Shown here piece by piece: positions 1 through 64,000 of a DNA stretch of 64,000 nucleotides. Source of the stretch: an uncultured Actinomycetota bacterium (lineage in GTDB: Bacteria > Actinomycetota > Actinomycetes > S36-B12 > GCA-2699445). Position numbers and translations under genes: made by a program. The stretch spans positions 28,197-92,196 of the forward strand of contig CAVPOB010000040.1 of NCBI GenBank assembly GCA_963706835.1, in the 5' to 3' direction. The notes under the pieces are model-generated. The model was given only the letters and a program-made list of their open reading frames with translations. It ran no database searches and was not told the origin of the DNA. How positions within the stretch are numbered: position 1 is the stretch's first letter; each line of letters begins with the position of its first letter.

Positions 1-1268
1 CAGGCCCGGCACGTCCACCGCGGCCTTGTCGCCGTCGAAGTCGGAAGGGCGCGTCGCGCTTCTCGATGGACCGCAGCGCCTTCTGCAGCGCTTCGGGGAA
101 GTTGCGTCCGATGGCCATCGCCTCGCCGACGCTCTTCATGGTGGTGGTCAGCACGTGGTCGGCGTTCGGGAACTTCTCGAAGGCGAAGCGCGGCACCTTC
201 ACCACGATGTAGTCCAGCGTCGGCTCGAACGACGCCGGGGTCTCGGCGGTGATGTCGTTGGGGATCTCGTCCAGGCTGTAGCCGATGGCCAGTCGTGCCG
301 CGATCTTGGCGATGGGGAATCCCGGTGGCCTTGGAAGCCAGCGCTGAGCTGCGAGAAACGCGCGGGTTCATCTCGATGACGATGATCCGGCCGTCATCGG
401 GATTCACCGCGAACTGGATGTTGCAGCCGCCGGTGTCCACGCCGACGGCGCGGATGATGTCGATACCGAGATCGCGCAGCCGCTGATATTCGCGGTCGGT
501 GAGCGTCAGCGAGGGGGCGACGGTGATGGAGTCGCCGGTGTGCACGCCCATCGGATCGAAGTTCTCGATGGAGCAGACGACGACCACGTTGTCGTTGTGG
601 TCGCGCATCAGCTCCAGCTCGTACTCCTTCCAGCCGAGGATCGACTCCTCCAGCAGCACCTCGGTGGTGGGGCTGGCCAGCAGGCCCGCGCCGGCGATGC
701 GGCGCAGGTCCTCCTCGTTGTAGGCGAACCCCGACCCGGCACCGCCCATGGTGAACGACGGGCGCACCACCACGGGGTAGCCGAGCTCCGCCACCGCCTG
801 CTGGCATTCCGCCATGGAGTGGCAGATCCGGCTGCGGGCGCTCTCCCCGCCGATGGCGGCCACGATCTCCTTGAATCGCTCGCGGTTCTCGCCGCGCTGG
901 ATCGCCTCGACGTTGGCGCCGATCAGCTCCACGTCGTACTTGCGCAGCACCCCGGCCTCGTGCAGGGCGATGGCGGTGTTCAGCGCGGTCTGGCCCCCCA
1001 GGGTGGGCAGCAGCGCGTCGGGGCGCTCCTTGGCGATGATTTGCTCCACGACCTCCGGGGTGATGGGCTCGACGTAGGTGGCGTCGGCGAACTCCGGGTC
1101 GGTCATGATCGTGGCCGGGTTGGAGTTGATGAGGATGACCCGCAGGCCCTCGGCTTTCAGCACCCGGCAGGCCTGGGTGCCGGAGTAGTCGAACTCGGCG
1201 GCCTGCCCGATGACGATCGGGCCGGACCCGATCACGAGCACGCTGCCGATGTCGTCGCGGCGAGGCAT
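1..1268 (-). pseudogene. carB: carbamoyl-phosphate synthase large subunit, N-terminal part (runs off the window at 1); frame broken as sequenced
   Basis: Reverse translation from ATG 1268 (ATGA overlap with the carA stop) gives [41 protein letters not shown]... with the full ATP-grasp region. The frame is lost near 315-325 ([19 protein letters not shown] needs 1 nt removed in a C run) and possibly again near 45. Confidence 0.9.
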
Positions 1269-2945: not shown

Positions 2946-4292
2946 TCAGACCGCGGTCGCCGCGACGGCCTCGGCCAGGGCGCCGGGCCTCGGTGCGGCC
3001 AACTCGCCATCGGCAACAGTCGGCTCGCCGTACAGGATCGTCCACCGAACCACGCCGGGCAGCGTCATTCCGGCGAACGGCGTGTTCTTGCTCTTGCCCG
3101 CCAGTTCGGAGGGCTCCACGGTCCAGGTGGCGTCGGGATCGACCAGCACGATGTTGGCCGGCTCGCCCACCGCCACCGGCCGTCCCTGGCTGCTGAGCCG
3201 CCCGATCCGAGCCGGCGCGGCCGACATCCGGTCGGCGACCTCGGCCCAGGAGAGCCGTCCCGGCTGCACCATCGTCTCGATGACGACCGACAGCGCCGTC
3301 TGCAGTCCGACCATGCCGAAGGCGGCGTAGTCCCATTCGCACTCCTTGTCCTCGATGGAGTGCGGCGCATGATCGGTGGCCACGACGTCGATCGTGCCGT
3401 CGGCCAGCCCGGCGCGCAGCGCCTCGACATCGGCCGTCGTCCGCAGCGGCGGATTGACCTTGAAGACCGGGTCGTAGCCCCTGGCCCGCTCGTCGGTCAG
3501 CAGCAGGTGATGCGGCGTCACCTCTGCGGTGACGGCGATGCCCTGCTGCTTGGCGCGCCGCACGATGTCGACGCTGCCGGCGGTGGAGACGTGGCAGACG
3601 TGCAGCCGGGACCCGACATGGTGGGCGAGCAGGGAGTCGCGGGAGATGATCGCCTCCTCGGCGACGGCCGGCCAACCGCGAAGCCCCAGCACCGCCGAGA
3701 CGTCGCCCTCGTTCATCTGGGCGCCCTCGGTGAGGCGGGGCTCTTGCGGGTGCTGGGCGACCACGCCGTCGAAGGCCTTCACGTACTCCAGGGCCCGCCG
3801 CATGATGACGGCATCGGAGACGCAGTGACCGTCGTCGGAGAACACGCGCACACCGGCAGCCGAATCGGCCATGGCGCCGAGCTCGGCGAGGTGCTCCCCC
3901 GCCAGGCCGACGGTGATGGCGCCGACCGGGCGGACCTCGCAGTAGCCGGACGCCAGCCCGAGTCGCCACACCTGCTCGACGACACCGGCGGTGTCGGCGA
4001 CCGGAGTGGTGTTCGCCATCGCGTGCACCGCGGTGAAGCCGCCCAGCGCCGCCGCCTGCGTCCCGGACTCGATCGTCTCGGCGTCCTCGCGGCCGGGCTC
4101 GCGCAGATGCGTGTGCAGGTCGACCAGCCCGGGCAGCGCAACGGCGCCCCGGGCGTCGATCACCTGGGCGTCCGGATTGTCGTGCGCTGCGCCGCCCACC
4201 GGCGCGATCGCACTGATCGTGCTGCCGGTCACGACGATGTCGGCCGGCTCCTCGCCCAGGATGCGCGCGTTGCGGATGATCAGATCGGCCAT
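2946..4292 (-). CDS. pyrC: dihydroorotase
   Basis: Intact 448-aa ORF with the metal-binding motif [12 protein letters not shown] and a position between pyrB and carA. Confidence 0.95.
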
Positions 4293-5248: not shown

Positions 5249-5820
5249 GATGCGCTCCCCTCGTTCGCAACGATGAGTTCCACGGCGTCGCGGTCGTCGA
5301 TCTCGGTGAGCAGCACCCGGACCGCGTCCTCGCGCAACGTGGTGACGTTCTTGCCGACGTGATCGGCGCGGATCGGCAGATCCCGATGACCGCGGTCGAC
5401 CAGGACAGCCAGCCGGACCGCCCGGGGCCGGCCGTACTCGTTCAGCGCGTCCAGCGCGGCCCGAACGGTGCGACCGGAGAAGAGCACGTCGTCCACGAGG
5501 ACCACGATCTTGTCGTCGATGCCGCCCGGCGGGATCGACGTCGGCTGCAGGGGCCGGGTGGGATTGCGGCGCAGGTCGTCGCGGTACATCGTCGGGTCCA
5601 CCGACCCCACCGGCACGCTGGTGCCCTCGATGGCGGCAATCGTCTCGGCGATGCGCCGCGCGAGGAAGGTCCCGCGGGTGGGGATGCCGAGGATCACCAG
5701 GTCCTTGCTGCCCTTGGCGTGCTCGAGCAGTTCGTGGGAGATGCGCGTCAGACTGCGCTTGATGTCGCGAGCATCGGCAACAGTACGGGCATTGCCGGAT
5801 TCGCTGGTAGCGGGCGCCAT
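5245..5820 (-). CDS. pyrR: bifunctional pyrimidine operon regulator / uracil phosphoribosyltransferase PyrR
   Basis: [10 protein letters not shown]...[18 protein letters not shown]...[20 protein letters not shown] (PRPP motif). I chose ATG 5820 because AGGAGG lies 9 nt upstream and a PyrR-box hairpin lies in the leader. The ORF-track start at 5937 is probably too long. Confidence 0.9.
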
Positions 5821-5825
5821 GGGCA

Positions 5826-5880
5826 CCGACCTCCTACCCCGCCTCGCCGGGCGGATCTCAGGCCGCCTCGCTGGACGGCG
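5826..5880 (-). promoter_or_regulatory. PyrR-binding RNA hairpin and ribosome-binding-site region in the pyrR leader
   Basis: The minus strand reads GCCG-UCCAGCGAGG-CGGC (plus 5862-5879), close to the conserved PyrR box UCCAGAGAGG presented in a hairpin loop. It is followed by a second GC hairpin and AGGAGG (plus 5830-5835) just before the start codon. Confidence 0.6.
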
Positions 5881-6063
5881 TTCAGGAAGATTCCTCCTGA
5901 CGGTAGCAAACGGCCCGCGACGCGAACGATGCGGCACCCGATCGGGGGAAACTTTCTGTTACCTGCCATACTCTCCGTAGTGCAGTACATTCCTTGCGCT
6001 ACATTACGTAGAGGCTGCGCAGTCTGCGGGGAGCCGTTCTTTCTAGGGGTGGGGGTAGGGCTA

Positions 6064-6618
6064 TGGCAACGGACTACGGGCGAGCACTTGGCGCTACGAC
6101 TGCGATCCATCCGGCAACAACAGAACCTTTCGCTGCAGGGCGTGGAGGAGAAGTCCCGCGGTCAGTGGAAGGCCGTCGTCGTCGGATCCTACGAGCGCGG
6201 TGACCGGGCGATCACCGTGGCCAAACTCGCCGCCCTGGCGTCCTTCTACGGCGTGCCAGTCAACGAACTGCTGCCCGACGGGGCGTCCAGCGCCACGATC
6301 GAGCCACCCCCGAGCGTGGTCATCGACCTCACCCGACTGGCAGAGATGCCCGCCCCGGCCGGCCAACTGCTGCAGCGCTACATCGCCGCGATCCAGGCGC
6401 AGCGGGGCGACTACAACGGCCGCATCCTGTCGATCCGGCAAGAGGATCTGCGCACCCTCGCCGTGATGTACGACCGCCGCCCGAGCCAGTTGGCGGAGGA
6501 ACTCATCGCCTGGGGCGTGCTGAACCCACCGGCCAGTGCCAGTGTGGCAGCAGCCCCGCCGGCGCAGCGCACGGCCGCCCGGACGCTGCCGGTCGCCCTG
6601 CCGGACGCAACCGTCTAG
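6064..6618 (+). pseudogene. bldD: BldD-family developmental transcription regulator (XRE HTH plus c-di-GMP-binding C-terminal domain); one frame break near the 5' end
   Basis: ATG 6064 gives MATDYGRALGA. An extra nt near 6096 then shifts into the frame of ORF 5359..6618: RLRSIRQQQNLSLQGVEEKSRGQWKAVVVGSYERGDRAITV...QRGDYNGRILSIRQEDLRTLAV. The protein is colinear with Streptomyces BldD and divergent from pyrR, as in Streptomyces. Confidence 0.85.
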
Positions 6619-8131: not shown

Positions 8132-8211
8132 TGAGGAGCAGAACGGCGGTATGCCCACAGAGCGTGAGCACGAGGCGCCGTGAGCCGCACTCGTCTGCTG
8201 ATCAGGAACGC

Positions 8212-8256
8212 AAACCGCTGCTCCCGACCGACCGGAGGGGCCGGGAACAGCGGTTT
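8212..8256 (-). terminator. terminator-like hairpin downstream of gltD
   Basis: AAACCGCTG (8212-8220) pairs with CAGCGGTTT (8248-8256) and there is an inner CTCC/GGAG pairing. On the minus strand the stem is followed by TTTGCGTTCC. It lies about 80 nt after the gltD stop. Confidence 0.45.
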
Positions 8257-8334
8257 CCGTGTGTGTCCGATATGCGGTAGGGCTGCCGGTTGCGCAGCGT
8301 CACCTCCGCCCCGCGACCAGCGGCCCAAACGGCC

Positions 8335-26420: not shown

Positions 26421-26451
26421 TCACCGGTCGGCGGCTCGCTGAGCACGAACG

Positions 26452-26496
26452 AAAACCTCCGTTCCGGGGCCCTTCAGCAGGCGCGGAACGGAGGTT
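26452..26496. terminator. bidirectional terminator-like hairpin between convergent hisF and priA
   Basis: Perfect 14-bp inverted repeat AAACCTCCGTTCCG (26452-26465) / CGGAACGGAGGTTT (26483-26496) with a 17-nt loop. T-containing tails follow on both strands (GCGTTTGGGTT on plus, TTCGTTCG on minus). Confidence 0.6.
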
Positions 26497-26550
26497 TGCG
26501 TTTGGGTTCCCGCAACTCGCGCGGAGAGGCGTCGCCGCGGCTACGCAGCG

Positions 26551-32483: not shown

Positions 32484-35400
32484 TCACCCCAGGCACCCGG
32501 CCCCCAGCAGCGCCTTGAGGTCGGCGTACAGAGAAGGGCCGGGCCGCACCCGGAAGCGGTCCTCCAAGCGAAGCACCGTGGTGTGGTTGCCCTTCTGCAG
32601 GTGCAGGTGGACATCGACCGTGCCGGGGTGGTTGTGCAGGATCTCCTTGATGGACTCCACGACCGGCGGCACGCAGCGCGCCACATCCAGCGTGATCCGC
32701 ACCGGGCCCGTGGCCTCGGTCTGCATGTCTGGGAAGGCGATCTCGACAGCTGTGATGCGGGGTGCCTCGTCCTCGCGGCGATCGAACTTGCCCTTCACCA
32801 CCACGATGGCGTCCTCGACGAGCCGGGCGCTGACCGGGGCGTAGGACTTGGGAAAGACCATCACGTCGATCGAGGCGTCGAGGTCCTCCAGCGAGACGAT
32901 CGCCCACGGCTCCCCGGAGGCCTTCGTCATCTTCCGCTGCACGGAGGTGACCAGGCCCGCCACCTTCACCGTCTGCCCAGCCCGATCGCTGTCGAGCAGC
33001 GCAGCCACTCCCAGGTCGCTGTTGGCTCGCAGCACGTGTTCCAGGCCGTTGAGCGGGTGATCGCTGACGTACAGCCCGAGCATTTCCCGCTCCGACGCCA
33101 GCAGTGTCGACTTGTCCCACTCCCCGACCGGAATGTTGACCTGCAGCGAGCCGGTGCTGGCCGGAGCACCATCGCCGAGATCCCCGAACAGGTCGTACTG
33201 CCCCACCGCCTTGGCCCGCTTGGACTCCATCGCGACATCGACCAGTTGCTCGTGGACCTGCAGCAGTCCCTTGCGGGTGTGGCCGAGCGAATCGAAGGCC
33301 CCTGCCTTGATCAGCGACTCCACAGTGCGCTTGTTGCAGACGACGACCTCGACGGCGTCCACGAAATCGGCGAAGTCGGCGAACCTGCCGTGCTCGGCAC
33401 GGGTCCGCAGCAGCGAGTCCACCACGTTGCCCCCGACGTTGCGGATCGCCGAGAGGCCGAAGCGGATGTCGCTGCCACGGGGGGCGAAGTCGGACTCCGA
33501 CTCGTTGACATCCGGCGGGAGGACCTTGATGCCCATCCGGCGGCACTCGTTGAGGTACACGGCGGACTTGTCCTTGTCGTCCTTCACCGAGGTGAGCAGG
33601 GCCGCCATGTACTCGGCCGGATAGTTGGCCTTCAGGTAGGCCGTCCAGTAGGAGACCAGCCCGTAGCCGGCGGTGTGGGCCTTGTTGAAGGCGTAGTCGG
33701 AGAACGGGACCAGCACCTCCCAGAGCTTGGTGATCGCCTCGTCGGAGTAGCCGTTGGCCCGCATGCCGTCGCGGAACGGCACGAACTCCGCGTCGATGAT
33801 CTCCTTCTTCTTCTTGCCCATCGCGCGGCGCAGCAGGTCGGCCTTGCCCAAGGAGTAGCCGGCCAGCTTCTGGGCGATCGCCATCACCTGCTCCTGATAG
33901 ACGATCAGCTGATGGGTGTCGCCGAGGATCTCCTCCAGCGGCTCGGCGAGCTCCGGGTGCAGCGGCACCGTCGGCTTGCGGTTGTTCTTGCGGTCGGCGT
34001 AGTCGTTGTGGGCGTTGGCCCCCATCGGGCCCGGACGGTAGAGGGCGAGTACCGCGGAGATGTCCTCGAAGTTGTCCGGCACCATCGAGCGCAGCAGTTG
34101 GCGCATCGGGCCGCCGTCGAGCTGGAACACGCCGAGGGTGTCACCGCGCGCCAGGAGCTCATAGGTGGGCCGGTCGTCCAGCGGCAACTCTTCCAGGAGC
34201 ACCTCGTTGCCGGTGTTCGCCGCGATATGGCGCAGGCAGTCGTCGAGCACGGTGAGGTTGCGCAGGCCCAGGAAGTCCATCTTCAGCAGGCCGATGGTTT
34301 CGCAGGCGCCCATGTCCCACTGGGTGATGATCGTGCCGTCGTCGCGCCGCCACAGCGGCAGCACGTCCAGCAGCGGCTCTGCGGACAGGATCACACCGGC
34401 GGCGTGCACGCCGACCTGTCGCTTCAAGCCCTCCAGCCCGCGCGCCAGGTCGACGATCTGGTGCACGGTCTCATCGCTGTCGTACAACTCGCGGAACTCG
34501 CCGGCCTCCGCGTACCGCTTGTGGCCCTTGTCGAAGATGCCTGACAGCGGGATGTCCTTGCCCATCACCGCCGGCGGCATCGCCTTGGTGATCCGGTCGG
34601 AGACGCTGAACGGCAGCCCCAGGACCCGGGCGGAGTCCTTGATCGCGGCCTTCGCCTTGATGGTGCCGTACGTGACGATCTGCGCCACCCGGTCGGATCC
34701 GTACTTGTCGGTGGCGTACTTGATCATCTCGCCGCGCCGACGCTCGTCGAAGTCGATGTCGATGTCGGGCATGGACACCCGCTCGGGGTTCAGGAACCGT
34801 TCGAAGAGCAAGCCGTGCGCCAACGGGTCCAACTCGGTGATGCCCAGGGCCCACGCGATGAGCGCCCCGGCTGCCGAACCGCGCCCGGGACCGACCCGAA
34901 TCCCGACGCTCTTGGCGTGGTTGATGAGGTCGGCGACCACCAGGAAGTAGCCGGGGAAGCCCATCTTGGTGATCATCGCCAGTTCGTAGTCCGCCTGGTC
35001 GCGGTGCGCCTGCGGGACCGGGTGCGGGGCGAACCGAGCCGCCAGACCCCGCTCGACCTCCTTGACCAGCCACGATTCCTCGGTCTCGCCGGCCGGCACG
35101 GCAAAGCGCGGCATGAGATCGCGCTTCTCGCCCAGCGTGACGTTGCAGCGCTCGGCGATGAGCAGCGTGTTCTGCAGCGCCTCGGGCATGTGGCCCCACA
35201 CCTGCTCCATCTCGGCAGCCGACTTCACATAGAAGTCCTGGGCGTCGAAGCGGAACCGCTTGGGGTCGTCGATGGTCGTCTTGGTGCCGACGCACAGGAA
35301 GGCGTCGTGGACCTTCGCGTCCTCCGGGCTTGACGTAGTGCAGATCGTTGGTGGCCACGAGCGGGAGGTTCAGCCGCTTGGCGATCTCGAGCAACTGGTC

Positions 35401-36015: not shown

Positions 36016-36241
36016 GGTTTCCCCTCCCAGGCGTTCGGCCAACGACGTCCGCGCAACGATGGCGCGAGCCGGGCTTGCGGCCCGCCCGCACTGCCGTTGG
36101 GGGAAGCGTGCAACGGACGCGACCCGACAACCCTAACCCCAGCCCTCGGCGCAGATGCGCTGCCCATGCGGGGCGCCGGGGTGTCGTCCGGTCAAACCGC
36201 CGGCCGCGCTGCCAGCCACAGGCTCGCAGCCTCCGGTCCCC

Positions 36242-36590
36242 TCACGCAGGATTCGGCGCTTCCGGGCGGCCAGCGGCAGTAGGACCCCGAGAGTGAGCAG
36301 TGTCGCCGCGGCGAACAGCGAGGTCCTGACCGCGGTCGCCCCGGTCTCCGGCGTTGTGGGCCGTTCCGGCGGTGGGGGCCGGCGGTGGGCGGTTCCGGCG
36401 GCCCCGGCGGCGGTAGTGTGGTGGGCGGGGTGAAGGTGTTCGTGGCTGTGATCGCGGCGACCTCGTCGGCGGTGCCCGCCGGCTCGAACGGCGCACCCGG
36501 CCCTTCCACCACCTTGCTCACCGCGAAGGACTCCGCGGCGTAGGTGCTCGAGACGACTGCGGCGTCTCCCGCCACCGTTGCGCTGCTGGG
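36242..36590 (-). pseudogene. C-terminal remnant of a sortase-anchored surface protein, abutting repeat locus A
   Basis: ..STYAAESFAVSKVVEGPGAPFEPAGTADEVAAITATNTFTPP (ORF 36192..36818), then in another frame PPPPERPTTPETGATAVRTSLFAAATLLTLGVLLPLAARKRR (ORF 36133..36660). A stop at 36242 is reachable after a further shift. No signal peptide or N-terminal domain is left before the repeat. Confidence 0.4.
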
Positions 36591-36955
36591 TTGCACCGCC
36601 GGAGGACGTCGGCAATCGGCGCGGGGGCGGAATCGGGCGGTATGCGGGGCAGGGCTGCACCCGGCGCAGGGGTTTGCACTCGGCGCGGGGGCGGAATCGG
36701 GCGGATCGGGGCGCAGAACCTCCATCCCGGGTGCAGACCCCCGAACCGGGTGCACAGTCGCTCCGCCGGACGTGACCTCAGCCCTCGTATGAGCCCGGCA
36801 GCGCCGTGTACGGCTCACGGTGCCCGTGTCGCTGCAGGAGCGGCGAAGCCATCCACCCCCGTGCAGCGGTGCCCGCGCCTAGCCAGCCCACGCCCAGCCC
36901 AGTAAAGCCGGAGCCGCAGCCCCAGCCGCACGCCCTGGATTGGGATGAGGCCGTT
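36590..36955 (+). repeat. composite intergenic repeat, locus A: 2 direct units (64-bp spacing), 1 inverted core, and a flank homologous to locus B
   Basis: Cores at 36590-36618 (degenerate) and 36655-36683 (CTGCACCCGGCGCAGGGGTTTGCACTCGG), and an inverted core at 36731-36755 (GTGCAGACCCCCGAACCGGGTGCAC). The downstream flank shares GCGAAGCC...CCCTGGATTGGGATGAGG (36933-36950) with 45104-45180. Confidence 0.85.
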
Positions 36956-37019
36956 GGGCTCGATGGTGCGGCGTTGCCCTTCGACACCGGCCGCCGCCGG
37001 CCCGCGAAGCGCAGCGTCG

Positions 37020-37950
37020 CTAGGCCCAGGAAAGGATGCGCGACAGCGCCTCCGCCAGGTCATCGGGGTACTGGCTGCGGAACGTCATCCGCCGGCCCGT
37101 GGACGGGTGGTCGAGCGTGAGCGCGACGGCGTGCAGCCACTGCCGCTGCAGGTCAAGCCTGCCGGCCAGGACCGGGTCGGCGCCGTAGGTCAGATCACCC
37201 ACGCACGGGTGGCGCAGTGCTGCCATATGGACGCGGATCTGATGCGTTCGGCCGGTCTCCAAGTGGATCTCCAGCAGCGAGGCGTACCGATGCGCCTCCA
37301 GGGTCCGGTAGTGGGTCACGCTCGGTCGGCCGTCGGCGGTGACTGCCCACTTGTAGTCGTGCGCGGGATGCCGGCCGATGGGGGCGTCGATGGTGCCGGA
37401 TGTGGGGTCGGGGTGGCCCTGTACCAATGCGTGGTAGACCTTCGTCACCGTCCGCTCGCGGAACTGCCGTTTGAGGTCGGCATACGCCTGTTCGCTCTTG
37501 GCGACCACCATGACGCCGGAAGTGCCGACATCGAGACGGTGCACGACTCCCTGCCGTTCGGCTGCGCCCGAGGTCGCGACGCGGTAGCCGGCGGCAGCCA
37601 GCCCGCCGATGACGGTCGGCCCGGTCCACCCCGGACTGGGATGGGCCGCCACGCCGACCGGCTTCTCGACCACGACCATCTCGGCGTCGTCGTGCAGGAT
37701 ATGCATCCCGGGAACCGGTTCGGGGGCACTGCTGGGTGGTGGGCCGCTCGTCGGCCATCTCGATTTCGAGCAGGGCATCGGAGGGCAGCCGGAAGGATCG
37801 TGCCACCGGCGCCCCCGCGACCCGGACCGATCCGGCATCGACGAGGTCTGCCGCTTTCGTGCGGGAGAGCCCGGTGAGCCGTGCCACGGCAGCGTCGGCC
37901 CGTTCCCCCACCAGTCCGTCCGGGACGGGCAGCATCCGGACCTGCGTCAT
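37020..37950 (-). pseudogene. rluD: RluA-family 23S rRNA pseudouridine synthase (RluD-like); single 1-nt insertion
   Basis: [37 protein letters not shown] (S4 domain; ATG 37950 overlaps the lspA stop), then [47 protein letters not shown] (ORF 37020..37838). There is an extra C in a C5 run (plus 37721-37727). Confidence 0.9.
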
Positions 37951-38536: not shown

Positions 38537-39397
38537 TCAGCGCCGCTCCTCGCGCTCCTTGCACGACAGGCACAGCGTAGCCCTGGGAAAGGCCATCAGC
38601 CGCAGCTTGCCGATGGGTTTGCCGCAGTTCTCGCACCAGCCGTAGGTACCGCGGACCATGCGCCGACGAGCCCGGTCGACCTGCTCCAGCATCTCCACGC
38701 TGTTCGCGGCCAGAGAGATCTCCTGTTCGCGCTCGAGGGTCCGGCTGCCGGCGTCGGCCTGATCGTCGCCAGAGCCGTCGCCCGCGTCACGCAGCATCTC
38801 CGCCAACTGGTCGTCCGCGTCGGCGATCTCCTCGATCAGGCGCTCCCGCTCGCGTTGCAGTTCGGCCTGCACCTCCGCGATCTCATCATCGGTCCACGGG
38901 TCCTCGCCGGGTCGCACCGGAATCGCGCCGAGTTCGGTGCCGGCAGCGTCGGGCGCAGTCGCGGACGCCGTGGTCTCGACTGGCGACGCGTCGGGGGCCG
39001 TTGCACTGGCGGCATCTGATCCGGTCGGCCCATCGGCGGCCGGTGCAGTGGTCGCACGCTTCTGGGCCGACGGCTTCTTGGCTGTGGGCTCGGTCACTGC
39101 TGTCTTCCTCACGGCCGCCTTCTTCGTCGCGGTCTTCTTCGCAGTTGTCTTCGTGGCCGCCGTCTTCTTCGCGGCGGTCTTCGTCGCCGCGGTCTTCTTC
39201 GCCGCCGTCTTCTTCGCCGCTGTCTTCTTCGCGGCGGTCTTCTTCGCAGTCGTCTTCGTGGCCGCGGTCTTCTTCGCAGCCGTCTTCTTCGCGGCGGTCT
39301 TCTTCGCAGTCGGGGTCTCGGCTGCCGTCTTCTCTGCCGTGGAACCTTCGGTCCGGCCATCGGCTCTCGCTGCCGCCGCCCCGGACTCCGCTGGCAC
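38537..39397 (-). CDS. DdbA-like bifunctional protein: N-terminal Lys/Ala/Thr-rich histone-H1-like repeats fused to a C-terminal DksA/TraR C4 zinc-finger domain
   Basis: 286-aa ORF with about 14 KKTAA-type pentapeptides, then a coiled-coil (EIAEVQAELQRERERLIEEI..LEREQEISLA) and CENCGKPIGKLRLMAFPRATLCLSC (CxxC-x17-CxxC). It sits between lspA and ileS, as SCO2075 does. The true start may be further upstream (ATG 39488 or GTG 39494) if one nt near 39440 is spurious. Confidence 0.85.
   Translation of the reverse strand: MPAESGAAAARADGRTEGSTAEKTAAETPTAKKTAAKKTAAKKTAATKTTAKKTAAKKTAAKKTAAKKTAATKTAAKKTAATKTTAKKTATKKAAVRKTAVTEPTAKKPSAQKRATTAPAADGPTGSDAASATAPDASPVETTASATAPDAAGTELGAIPVRPGEDPWTDDEIAEVQAELQRERERLIEEIADADDQLAEMLRDAGDGSGDDQADAGSRTLEREQEISLAANSVEMLEQVDRARRRMVRGTYGWCENCGKPIGKLRLMAFPRATLCLSCKEREERR
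39100..39315 (-). repeat. coding 15-nt tandem repeat (KKTAA pentapeptide array) inside the DdbA-like gene
   Basis: The plus strand shows GCNGCNGTCTTCTTC iterated about 14 times with small variations. Confidence 0.9.
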
Positions 39398-44458: not shown

Positions 44459-44670
44459 CCGCTGCTACCGGCGAGAGGGCCGCGCCACCGGCCGGCCCTG
44501 CTGGCGCGGCCCTGCGCCGGCGAGGCTGGCAATGAGGCGCATCGCAGGGGGCGTCTGGTGGGATCCGGCGTCTGCGGGTGGAGCGAGCGGGCCGCCGGGG
44601 GCCCGGTCGCATCCCGGTGTCCAGCGGATCCAGCAATGTGAGCGGCCTCATCCCGCTGCGCCGAGGAACG

Positions 44671-45185
44671 TCTGCACCCGGTTCGGGGGTTTGCACCCGC
44701 CGCGGGGGCGGACCGGCCGGAGTGCGGGGCGGGTCTGCACCCGGTTCGGGGGTTTGCACCCGCCGCGGGGGCGGACCGGCCGGAGTGCGGGGCGGGTCTG
44801 CACCCGGTTCGGGGGTTTGCACCCGCCGCGGGGGCGGAACGTCCGGTAGTCGGGGCAGGGCTGCACCCGGTTCGGGGGTTTGCACCCGCCGCGGGGGCGG
44901 AACCGGCCGGATCGGGGCCGACAGCCACCGTCCCGGGTGCAAACCCCCGCAACCGGGTGCACCGTGGCCGCCCCGGAGGCCCTCTCAGCCCCCGTCCCGG
45001 GTGCAAACCCCCGCAACGGGTGCACAGCCGCCGCCCCGGAGGCCCCGCACGGGGCGCCGACACCGCACCCAAGCGCAGCGCCGTCCCCTGCCAGCCGCCG
45101 GCCGCGAAGCCCCGCATCCCCGGGGAACGGCGCCCACCCCGAGCCACCGCCCGATGCAGCACACCCTGGATTGCGAGGAGCCGGC
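44671..45185 (+). repeat. composite intergenic repeat, locus B: 4 direct 63-bp units, 2 inverted units (64-bp spacing), and a conserved flank
   Basis: Units start at 44671, 44734, 44797 and 44860 (TCTGCACCCGGTTCGGGGGTTTGCACCCGCCGCGGGGGCGGACCGGCCGGAGTGCGGGGCGGG; units 1 and 2 are identical). Inverted cores GTGCAAACCCCCGCAACCGGGTGCAC lie at 44937-44962 and 45001-45025. The flank ends with CCCTGGATTGCGAGGAG at 45164-45180. Confidence 0.9.
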
Positions 45186-63789: not shown

Positions 63790-64000
63790 TGTGGCGGACT
63801 GTGGGCGACCCCGGTGGACGTGCCTGTGCACCCGTTGCGGGGGTTGGCACCCGGGGCGGGCGCTGCGGGCGGCTCCGGGGCGGCTTGCGTGCACCCGGAA
63901 CGGGGGTTTGCACCCGCGACGGTGGCTGCGGGCGGCTTCGGGGCGGCTTGCGTGCACCCGGAACGGGGGTTTGCACCCGCGGCGGTGGCTGCGGGCGGCT
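63790..64000 (+). repeat. composite intergenic repeat, locus C: flank plus at least 3 direct 63-bp units, truncated by the window end
   Basis: Cores GTGCACCCGTTGCGGGGGTTGGCACCCGG (63826-63854) and GTGCACCCGGAACGGGGGTTTGCACCCGC (63889-63917 and 63952-63980). The linkers GACGGTGGCTGCGGGCGGCTTCGGGGCGGCTTGC are nearly identical to each other and resemble the reverse complement of the inverted units of locus B. Confidence 0.85.

Follow-up and report, generated by a model that had tools for sequence, protein, structure and literature searches.

The repeat locus in the rluD-dnaE spacer of this genome (locus A) is, on balance, probably a copy of a lineage-specific, non-coding and non-autonomous selfish repeat, modular and interspersed in the manner of BOX, BrickBuilt and BIME sequences. 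It lies in a window of 64,000 nucleotides (nt), i.e. the whole stretch of DNA that was analysed, which has a G+C content of 70.6% and represents actinobacterial DNA. The gene order of the window, taken from the annotation of the syntenic relative L009, is dnaE - rluD - lspA ... ileS ... sepF - ftsZ - mur/fts genes - mraZ. On the minus strand rluD ends at position 37020 and dnaE starts at 36042, and locus A sits within the 978-nt spacer between them.

Scanning the whole window with a core pattern (TGCACCCGGNNCGGGGGTTTGCACCCG, with up to three mismatches allowed) revealed ten matches, whereas 100 shuffled sequences gave none. All ten are confined to three loci, with two matches in locus A (36656-36682 on the plus strand and 36728-36754 on the minus strand), five in locus B and three in locus C. 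A sixth core of locus B (44934-44961, minus strand) carries a 1-nt insertion and was recovered by an HMM scan; an inverted core of the same locus was found at 44998-45024. The arrays span positions 36587-36757 in locus A, 44670-45027 in locus B and 63824-64000 in locus C, where the array is ended by the window edge. Tandem Repeats Finder detected a 63-nt period in locus B, with 4.0 copies and 94% matches followed by 2.0 inverted copies, and a 63-nt period with 2.8 copies in locus C.

Each unit of the repeat comprises 63-65 nt and contains two sub-motifs TTTGCACC-N6-GGGGG, each of about 19 nt and about 19-20 nt apart. The ends of the units define two types: L-type units end in GGGGGCGGAWC, i.e. 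GGGGGCGGA(A/T)C, and R-type units in GGKGGCT, i.e. GG(G/T)GGCT. One to four L-type units in head-to-tail order face one to two or more inverted R-type units, always in a convergent arrangement. In this genome the R side continues into a tail of about 160-190 nt, which ends in GCACRCCCTGGATTG.

The first L-type unit of locus A (36587-36652, plus strand) has a degenerate first half and an intact second half (GGCGCGGGGGCGGAATCGGGCGG). Its local alignment with the second unit scored 63, compared to 20.4 +/- 3.5 for shuffled sequences (0 of 1000 shuffles as high); the two units share 81% identity, and their linker halves are nearly identical. The second L-type unit (36653-36715, plus strand), consisting of two TGCACC-N6-GGGGG sub-motifs followed by CGGAATC, shares 83-86% identity with the L units of locus B. 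The R-type unit (36716-36757, minus strand, core 36728-36754) is inverted and 83% identical to the unit B_R1 of locus B. A one-sided tail (36758-36955, plus strand) with the end block GCACGCCCTGGATTG at 36928-36942 completes the element, and a unique spacer reaches from there to the rluD stop codon (36956-37019); alignments to L005/L006/L007/L009 and L015 mark this spacer as lineage-specific extra DNA. In locus B we found four L-type units (44670-44921, plus strand) with a mutual identity of 92-100%, two R-type units (44922-45027, minus strand) assigned by repeat searches, HMM and identities, and a tail (45028-45183, plus strand) with the end block GCACACCCTGGATTG at 45159-45173. Locus C comprises at least three R-type units (63824-64000, plus strand) about 220 nt upstream of mraZ, where the window end cuts the array. 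Since its units are of the R-type, the element at locus C is inverted relative to those at A and B. A promoter-like sequence, TAGACA-16-TATTGT (63681-63654, minus strand), was observed between locus C and the mraZ start, with the array about 140 nt upstream of this site.

The original prediction had described locus A as two direct units and one inverted unit, and had given unit counts of 2+1 for locus A versus 4+2 for locus B. Repeat searches and HMM scans agree with both statements; the cores lie far above chance, and the first one (36590-36618) is degenerate. The prediction had also proposed homologous flanks at A and B that differ by an indel of about 30 nt, and this was confirmed by blastn, which matched 36840-36885 with 45101-45146 (74%, E 5e-4) and 36908-36949 with 45138-45180 (79%, E 4e-5). 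The two matches are collinear, with an offset difference of 31 nt that corresponds to the indel. A Smith-Waterman alignment of the A and B flanks scored 40 compared to 24.1 +/- 3.5 (1 of 300 shuffles as high), and GCACRCCCTGGATTG is present as an exact match at both 36928 in locus A and 45159 in locus B. The repeated entity is thus a composite element of unit arrays plus tail, as had been claimed, and not a short motif. Alignment of the locus C flank, situated in the mraZ promoter region, revealed no convincing homology to the A/B flank. The tail block was detected in three of ten assessable copies (A, B and partly L003), and a search for it in the other recovered genomes was positive only for L003. 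A shared left flank or conserved left leader was not significant in the comparison of copies. Putative decayed outer units at 36758-36840 (A) and 44600-44669 (B) were likewise not significant and were dropped.

Within arrays, neighbouring units are 92-100% identical, whereas units of the same type share 83-86% between loci; L and R units are 65-77% identical to each other. The high identity within arrays applies to whole units including the parts between the cores, with 92-100% for locus B and 98% for locus C. This difference fits an expansion of the arrays in situ. Such a pattern represents concerted evolution within the arrays, and it fits slippage or unequal exchange.

Syntenic contigs of relatives were found through their RluD and IleS homologues. 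Their rluD-dnaE spacers are free of the repeat and have lengths of 207 nt in L005/L006/L009 (a relative of about 90% identity), 423 nt in L007 (83%) and about 157 nt in L010 (81%). The spacer between the convergent ileS and SRPBCC genes, 744 nt long in the window, measures 24-26 nt in L009, L011 and L012. The family thus displays presence/absence polymorphism at orthologous sites, which are empty in L005/L006/L009, L007, L010, L011 and L012. Since the orthologous spacers of the compared relatives are short and repeat-free, loci A and B represent lineage-specific extra DNA. No family members were found in the 9-23 kb of the five relative contigs that were scanned (L005, L006, L007, L009 and L010), and relatives with empty sites and no family in the scanned regions are compatible with a gain by insertion as well as with a loss by deletion.

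An alignment showed that homology to the ancestral rluD-dnaE spacer resumes at about 36215, so that the extra segment at locus A extends over about 36216-37019 (about 800 nt) and includes a gene fragment. The adjoining dnaE upstream region (36043-36215, minus strand) is ancestral, conserved in the relatives and outside the element. It probably represents the dnaE promoter or leader, and holds a conserved block, GGGGTTAGGGTT (minus strand), that is untouched beside the inserted DNA. At both A and B the recognisable element accounts for only part of the extra DNA. As for the insertion event that the original prediction had envisaged, comparison of the junctions revealed no significant target-site duplication at either locus (p ~0.18 for A, 0.20 for B). 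Outer terminal inverted repeats were not found either: when the left edge was compared with the reverse-complemented right tail, 343 of 1000 shuffles equalled the score for locus B and 903 of 1000 that for locus A. The inversion is limited to the inner unit arrays. The 26-nt ileS-SRPBCC spacer of L009 (9226-9251, CACGCCCGGCACTGGATGCGCTCGAG) loosely resembles the tail block and was scored as noise (E 21), and the corresponding spacers of L011 and L012 are unlike the tail block. The likeness in L009 could be due to chance, to a target preference or to a remnant.

Some features of the assembly have to be considered in reading these sequences. As comparison with intact orthologues showed, an additional G in CCCGGAGG breaks dnaE into two frames at 35326/35327, and a single-base indel in a C5 run does the same to rluD at about 37720-37742. 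Essential genes cannot truly be frameshifted, and the frameshifts in dnaE and rluD therefore indicate that the assembly contains consensus indels. Both indels almost certainly arose as errors in the consensus of a long-read assembly, which makes other frameshifts in the window suspect and calls for caution with the frame change in the gene fragment and with 1-nt differences in unit spacing. The repeat itself is not an assembly artefact, because its copies come from both short-read and long-read assemblies. Further observations in the window concern a 286-aa ORF upstream of lspA (38537-39397, minus strand), whose N-terminal half consists of pentapeptide repeats of the (T/K)AAKK type, encoded by a 15-nt tandem repeat at 39102-39333, and whose C-terminus is a C4 zinc finger of the DksA/TraR type, and two terminator-like hairpin regions at 8207-8265 and 26444-26502, which are mutually 71% complementary over 59 nt.

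The gene fragment at the left edge of locus A (36216-36587, minus strand) is probably a 3' remnant of an LPXTG-type surface-protein gene, delimited by a GC3 plot, ORF translations and tblastn coordinates. Coding-type GC3 values of 0.85-0.90 were found over about 36230-36520 in two frames, which join at a C5 run near 36360-36380. The peptide consists of a domain of about 59 aa, a Pro-rich linker, TPETG, a hydrophobic stretch and RKRR. It was reconstructed as ...VAAITATNTFTPP-(Pro-rich)-TPETG-ATAVRTSLFAAATLLTLGVLLPLAARKRR..., with the C-terminus TPETG-ATAVRTS-LFAAATLLTLGVLLPLAA-RKRR. This agrees with the truncated gene of about 60 aa plus anchor described in the original prediction, except that the pentapeptide is TPETG and not the canonical LPXTG. 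The fragment has no start codon or N-terminus, its frame dissolving into the repeat, and at the other end it has no proper stop and continues into the ancestral spacer. An exhaustive HMMER search detected a single homologous protein, P0241 (E 3e-5, 47% identity), which ends in ...AAVTATNTFTEPP...LPMTG-hydrophobic-RRGR, with LPMTG aligned to TPETG and followed by a membrane anchor. A word-index search returned zero homologues, and comparison with NCBIfam gave no match to an anchor model, only one to a mycosin C-terminus with an E value of 0.25. Going by the peptide and its alignment, the fragment can credibly be regarded as what remains of a sortase-substrate C-terminus in which the pentapeptide is degenerate.

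The original prediction suggested that insertion of the element, or recombination at it, had destroyed an LPXTG gene resident in the rluD-dnaE interval. We consider this possible though unlikely. The 5'-truncated end of the fragment directly abuts the first unit, and the rluD-dnaE interval is variable in the clade, since the closest relative, L015 (RluD 94%), has different DNA after rluD, with a convergent gene (999-1268, minus strand; read as alpha/beta-hydrolase-like) in place of dnaE. However, an LPXTG gene is absent from the repeat-free rluD-dnaE spacers of three independent relatives at four loci (L005/L006, L007 and L010), the fragment has no stop of its own either and continues into the ancestral spacer, and the gene for its sole homologue P0241 lies in an unrelated context, on a 915-nt contig next to a gene read as peroxiredoxin-like and not beside dnaE. 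Of the original prediction, the composite element and its insertion stand, whereas the destruction of a resident gene was not borne out, as the relatives examined have no such gene at this site. The fragment may have been brought along by the element, or it may be an older lineage-specific gene that was truncated afterwards. With the selfish repeat as the preferred reading, the LPXTG-like fragment would be part of the same lineage-specific block of extra DNA.

The same design is shared by at least three other MAGs or metagenomes of uncultured actinomycetes in public assemblies; among the matches listed, the hosts are MAGs of uncultured Actinomycetes/Actinomycetota and one JGI metagenome contig. 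Outside the window, copies have one to two L-type plus one to two R-type units. The convergent layout of L followed by R was found with the core HMM in 11 of 11 oriented copies (window, L001-L004 and L008), and the L and R types are as distinct in L002, L008 and the CAZECO MAG (L001, L003, L004) as they are in the window. Every copy lies between genes, whether these are divergent, convergent or co-directional. Collections of plasmids, phages and viral contigs contained no match to the family, and a literature search with the core sequence found no paper.

Several copies show additional features. L001 contains two copies in inverted orientation (197-570 and 5749-6108), with secY-adk-map between them. 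Their identity of 91-93% extends over a 115-nt flank on the L side, and one of the two occupies the rplO-secY spacer in the operon of ribosomal proteins. In L003 a perfect 37-nt tandem duplication (3644-3717) lies within the element tail, and CACGCCCTGGATT recurs at 3745, 216 nt past the last R unit. Two elements in L002 have other short repeats directly beside them (2150-2280 and 6040-6200), one with a CGCTCGGCCGGCGGGAGG motif in a period of about 49 nt and the other a GGCGTG-type microsatellite.

The arrays might also serve as phased platforms for an oligomeric DNA-binding protein of the nucleoid-associated, segregation or translocase type, with TTTGCACC and GGGGG as putative contacts, a reading that we regard as distinctly unlikely. 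Alignment of 33 distinct units revealed conservation only in TGCACC(C), GGGG(G) and the L-type tail, while the six bases between the conserved blocks vary freely. Covariation within a unit hairpin was not supported by RNAalifold, whose consensus for the 33 units was weak (-8.7) and without convincing compensatory pairs. The 63-nt period corresponds to six helical turns, with CGGGG recurring about every 21 nt. In addition, the L and R types remain distinct and convergent across genomes, for which selection on a hairpin alone is insufficient, because the L and R arms are non-complementary at variable positions. Against a protein platform, the sites are missing from the orthologous spacers and from the scanned syntenic stretches of the relatives (up to 23 kb per contig) and are thus not a conserved regulatory feature. 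Furthermore, the number of units is highly variable, the elements occur in any gene context and no candidate protein is known. It is quite improbable that the convergent arrays, in helical phase with 63 nt and two to three G-runs per unit, serve an oligomeric DNA-binding or DNA-translocating protein of the lineage as recognition platforms, for example in a clt/TraB-like or centromere-like system dispersed over intergenic DNA; the L and R types would then give each site a polarity.

We attach little probability to a selected cis-acting RNA structure that would act as a bidirectional terminator or stabilise mRNA as a hairpin, along the lines proposed for REP/BIME. The predicted hairpins are very stable, with -70.5 kcal/mol (z -3.1) for unit 2 and the R unit of locus A and -277 kcal/mol (z -7.2) for the whole array of locus B, and the inverted L/R doublet is able to fold back by predicted pairing of its arms. 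Locus B is also located between convergent genes that have no U-tract terminator. Neither sigma-70 promoters nor intrinsic terminators were found in loci A and B. However, the 33 distinct units exhibit no compensatory changes, and Rfam searches at gathering and permissive thresholds returned nothing relevant; no tRNA or tmRNA was found. Elements are also positioned upstream of genes (locus C and L002a) and inside operons in either orientation: every locus holds both orientations of the units, and transcription would enter locus A from its R side and L001c2 from its L side. The relatives, moreover, do without the element. A degenerate CRISPR array has next to no probability and was ruled out, for although its cores of about 29 nt follow one another at a regular 63-nt spacing, as in CRISPR, the inter-core 'spacers' are themselves repeated, with 92-100% identity between neighbours and conservation across loci and genomes, units are present in both orientations (inverted at 36728-36754, 44934-44961 and 44998-45024), and the family forms several small loci.

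For the selfish repeat favoured here, the following course of events can be envisaged. The element would spread as a non-autonomous sequence into short intergenic spacers, where its arrays would grow and shrink in place by slipped-strand mispairing or unequal exchange between units. A transcript or single strand across the element would fold into a long imperfect hairpin, and this hairpin could incidentally stop or stabilise transcripts.

Few interspersed repeats are known in Actinomycetota, and to these the family adds an undescribed one whose tandem arrays have an unusual bipolar design. Its elements can lodge beside essential genes without disrupting them, as in the rluD-dnaE spacer, next to ileS, in the mraZ promoter region and between rplO and secY, and their presence makes the spacers about 5- to 30-fold longer. 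Short-read assemblies probably break at these elements, and the variation in unit number provides VNTR-type strain markers for unculturable lineages. A partner enzyme, if found, could define a new mobilisation mechanism that works without terminal repeats or duplications.

Among known systems, the element resembles pneumococcal BOX and BrickBuilt in being short, non-coding, strictly intergenic and dispersed, and in its modules, with variable tandem internal units, a tail module and a strong predicted fold. BrickBuilt, a MITE of P. gingivalis, has been documented as a modular MITE-like repeat with an internal minisatellite (PMC4596501). In contrast to BOX and BrickBuilt, the tandem units are of two distinct types, L and R, in arrays that oppose each other, and the element lacks a conserved leader, inverted-repeat ends and a junction duplication; sequence similarity to BOX or BrickBuilt is likewise absent. 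Of the hallmarks of MITEs, the element displays presence/absence polymorphism but neither terminal inverted repeats nor a target-site duplication.

REP/BIME clusters and REPINs of Proteobacteria are mobilised by RAYT. The element shares with them its extragenic location, GC-richness, the presence of both orientations in each cluster, a mosaic structure with other motifs, a copy number that varies by slippage and an inverted doublet that can form a hairpin. It differs from them in that its sub-motif is not itself palindromic and has no GTAG-type head, and in that its units are arranged head-to-tail within an arm and not in alternation. The REPIN/RAYT papers retrieved by our literature search did not mention Actinobacteria. 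Similar to MIRU/VNTR sequences, the element is actinobacterial, with tandem units in the range of 40-100 nt, dispersed intergenic loci and a locus-specific copy number; however, MIRUs are unidirectional and tied to the reading frames of operons, whereas the element is bipolar, with inverted arms and a tail. The repeat belongs to none of the BOX, BrickBuilt or BIME/REPIN families and is not a new biological system, but probably an undescribed family within a well-known class of selfish DNA.
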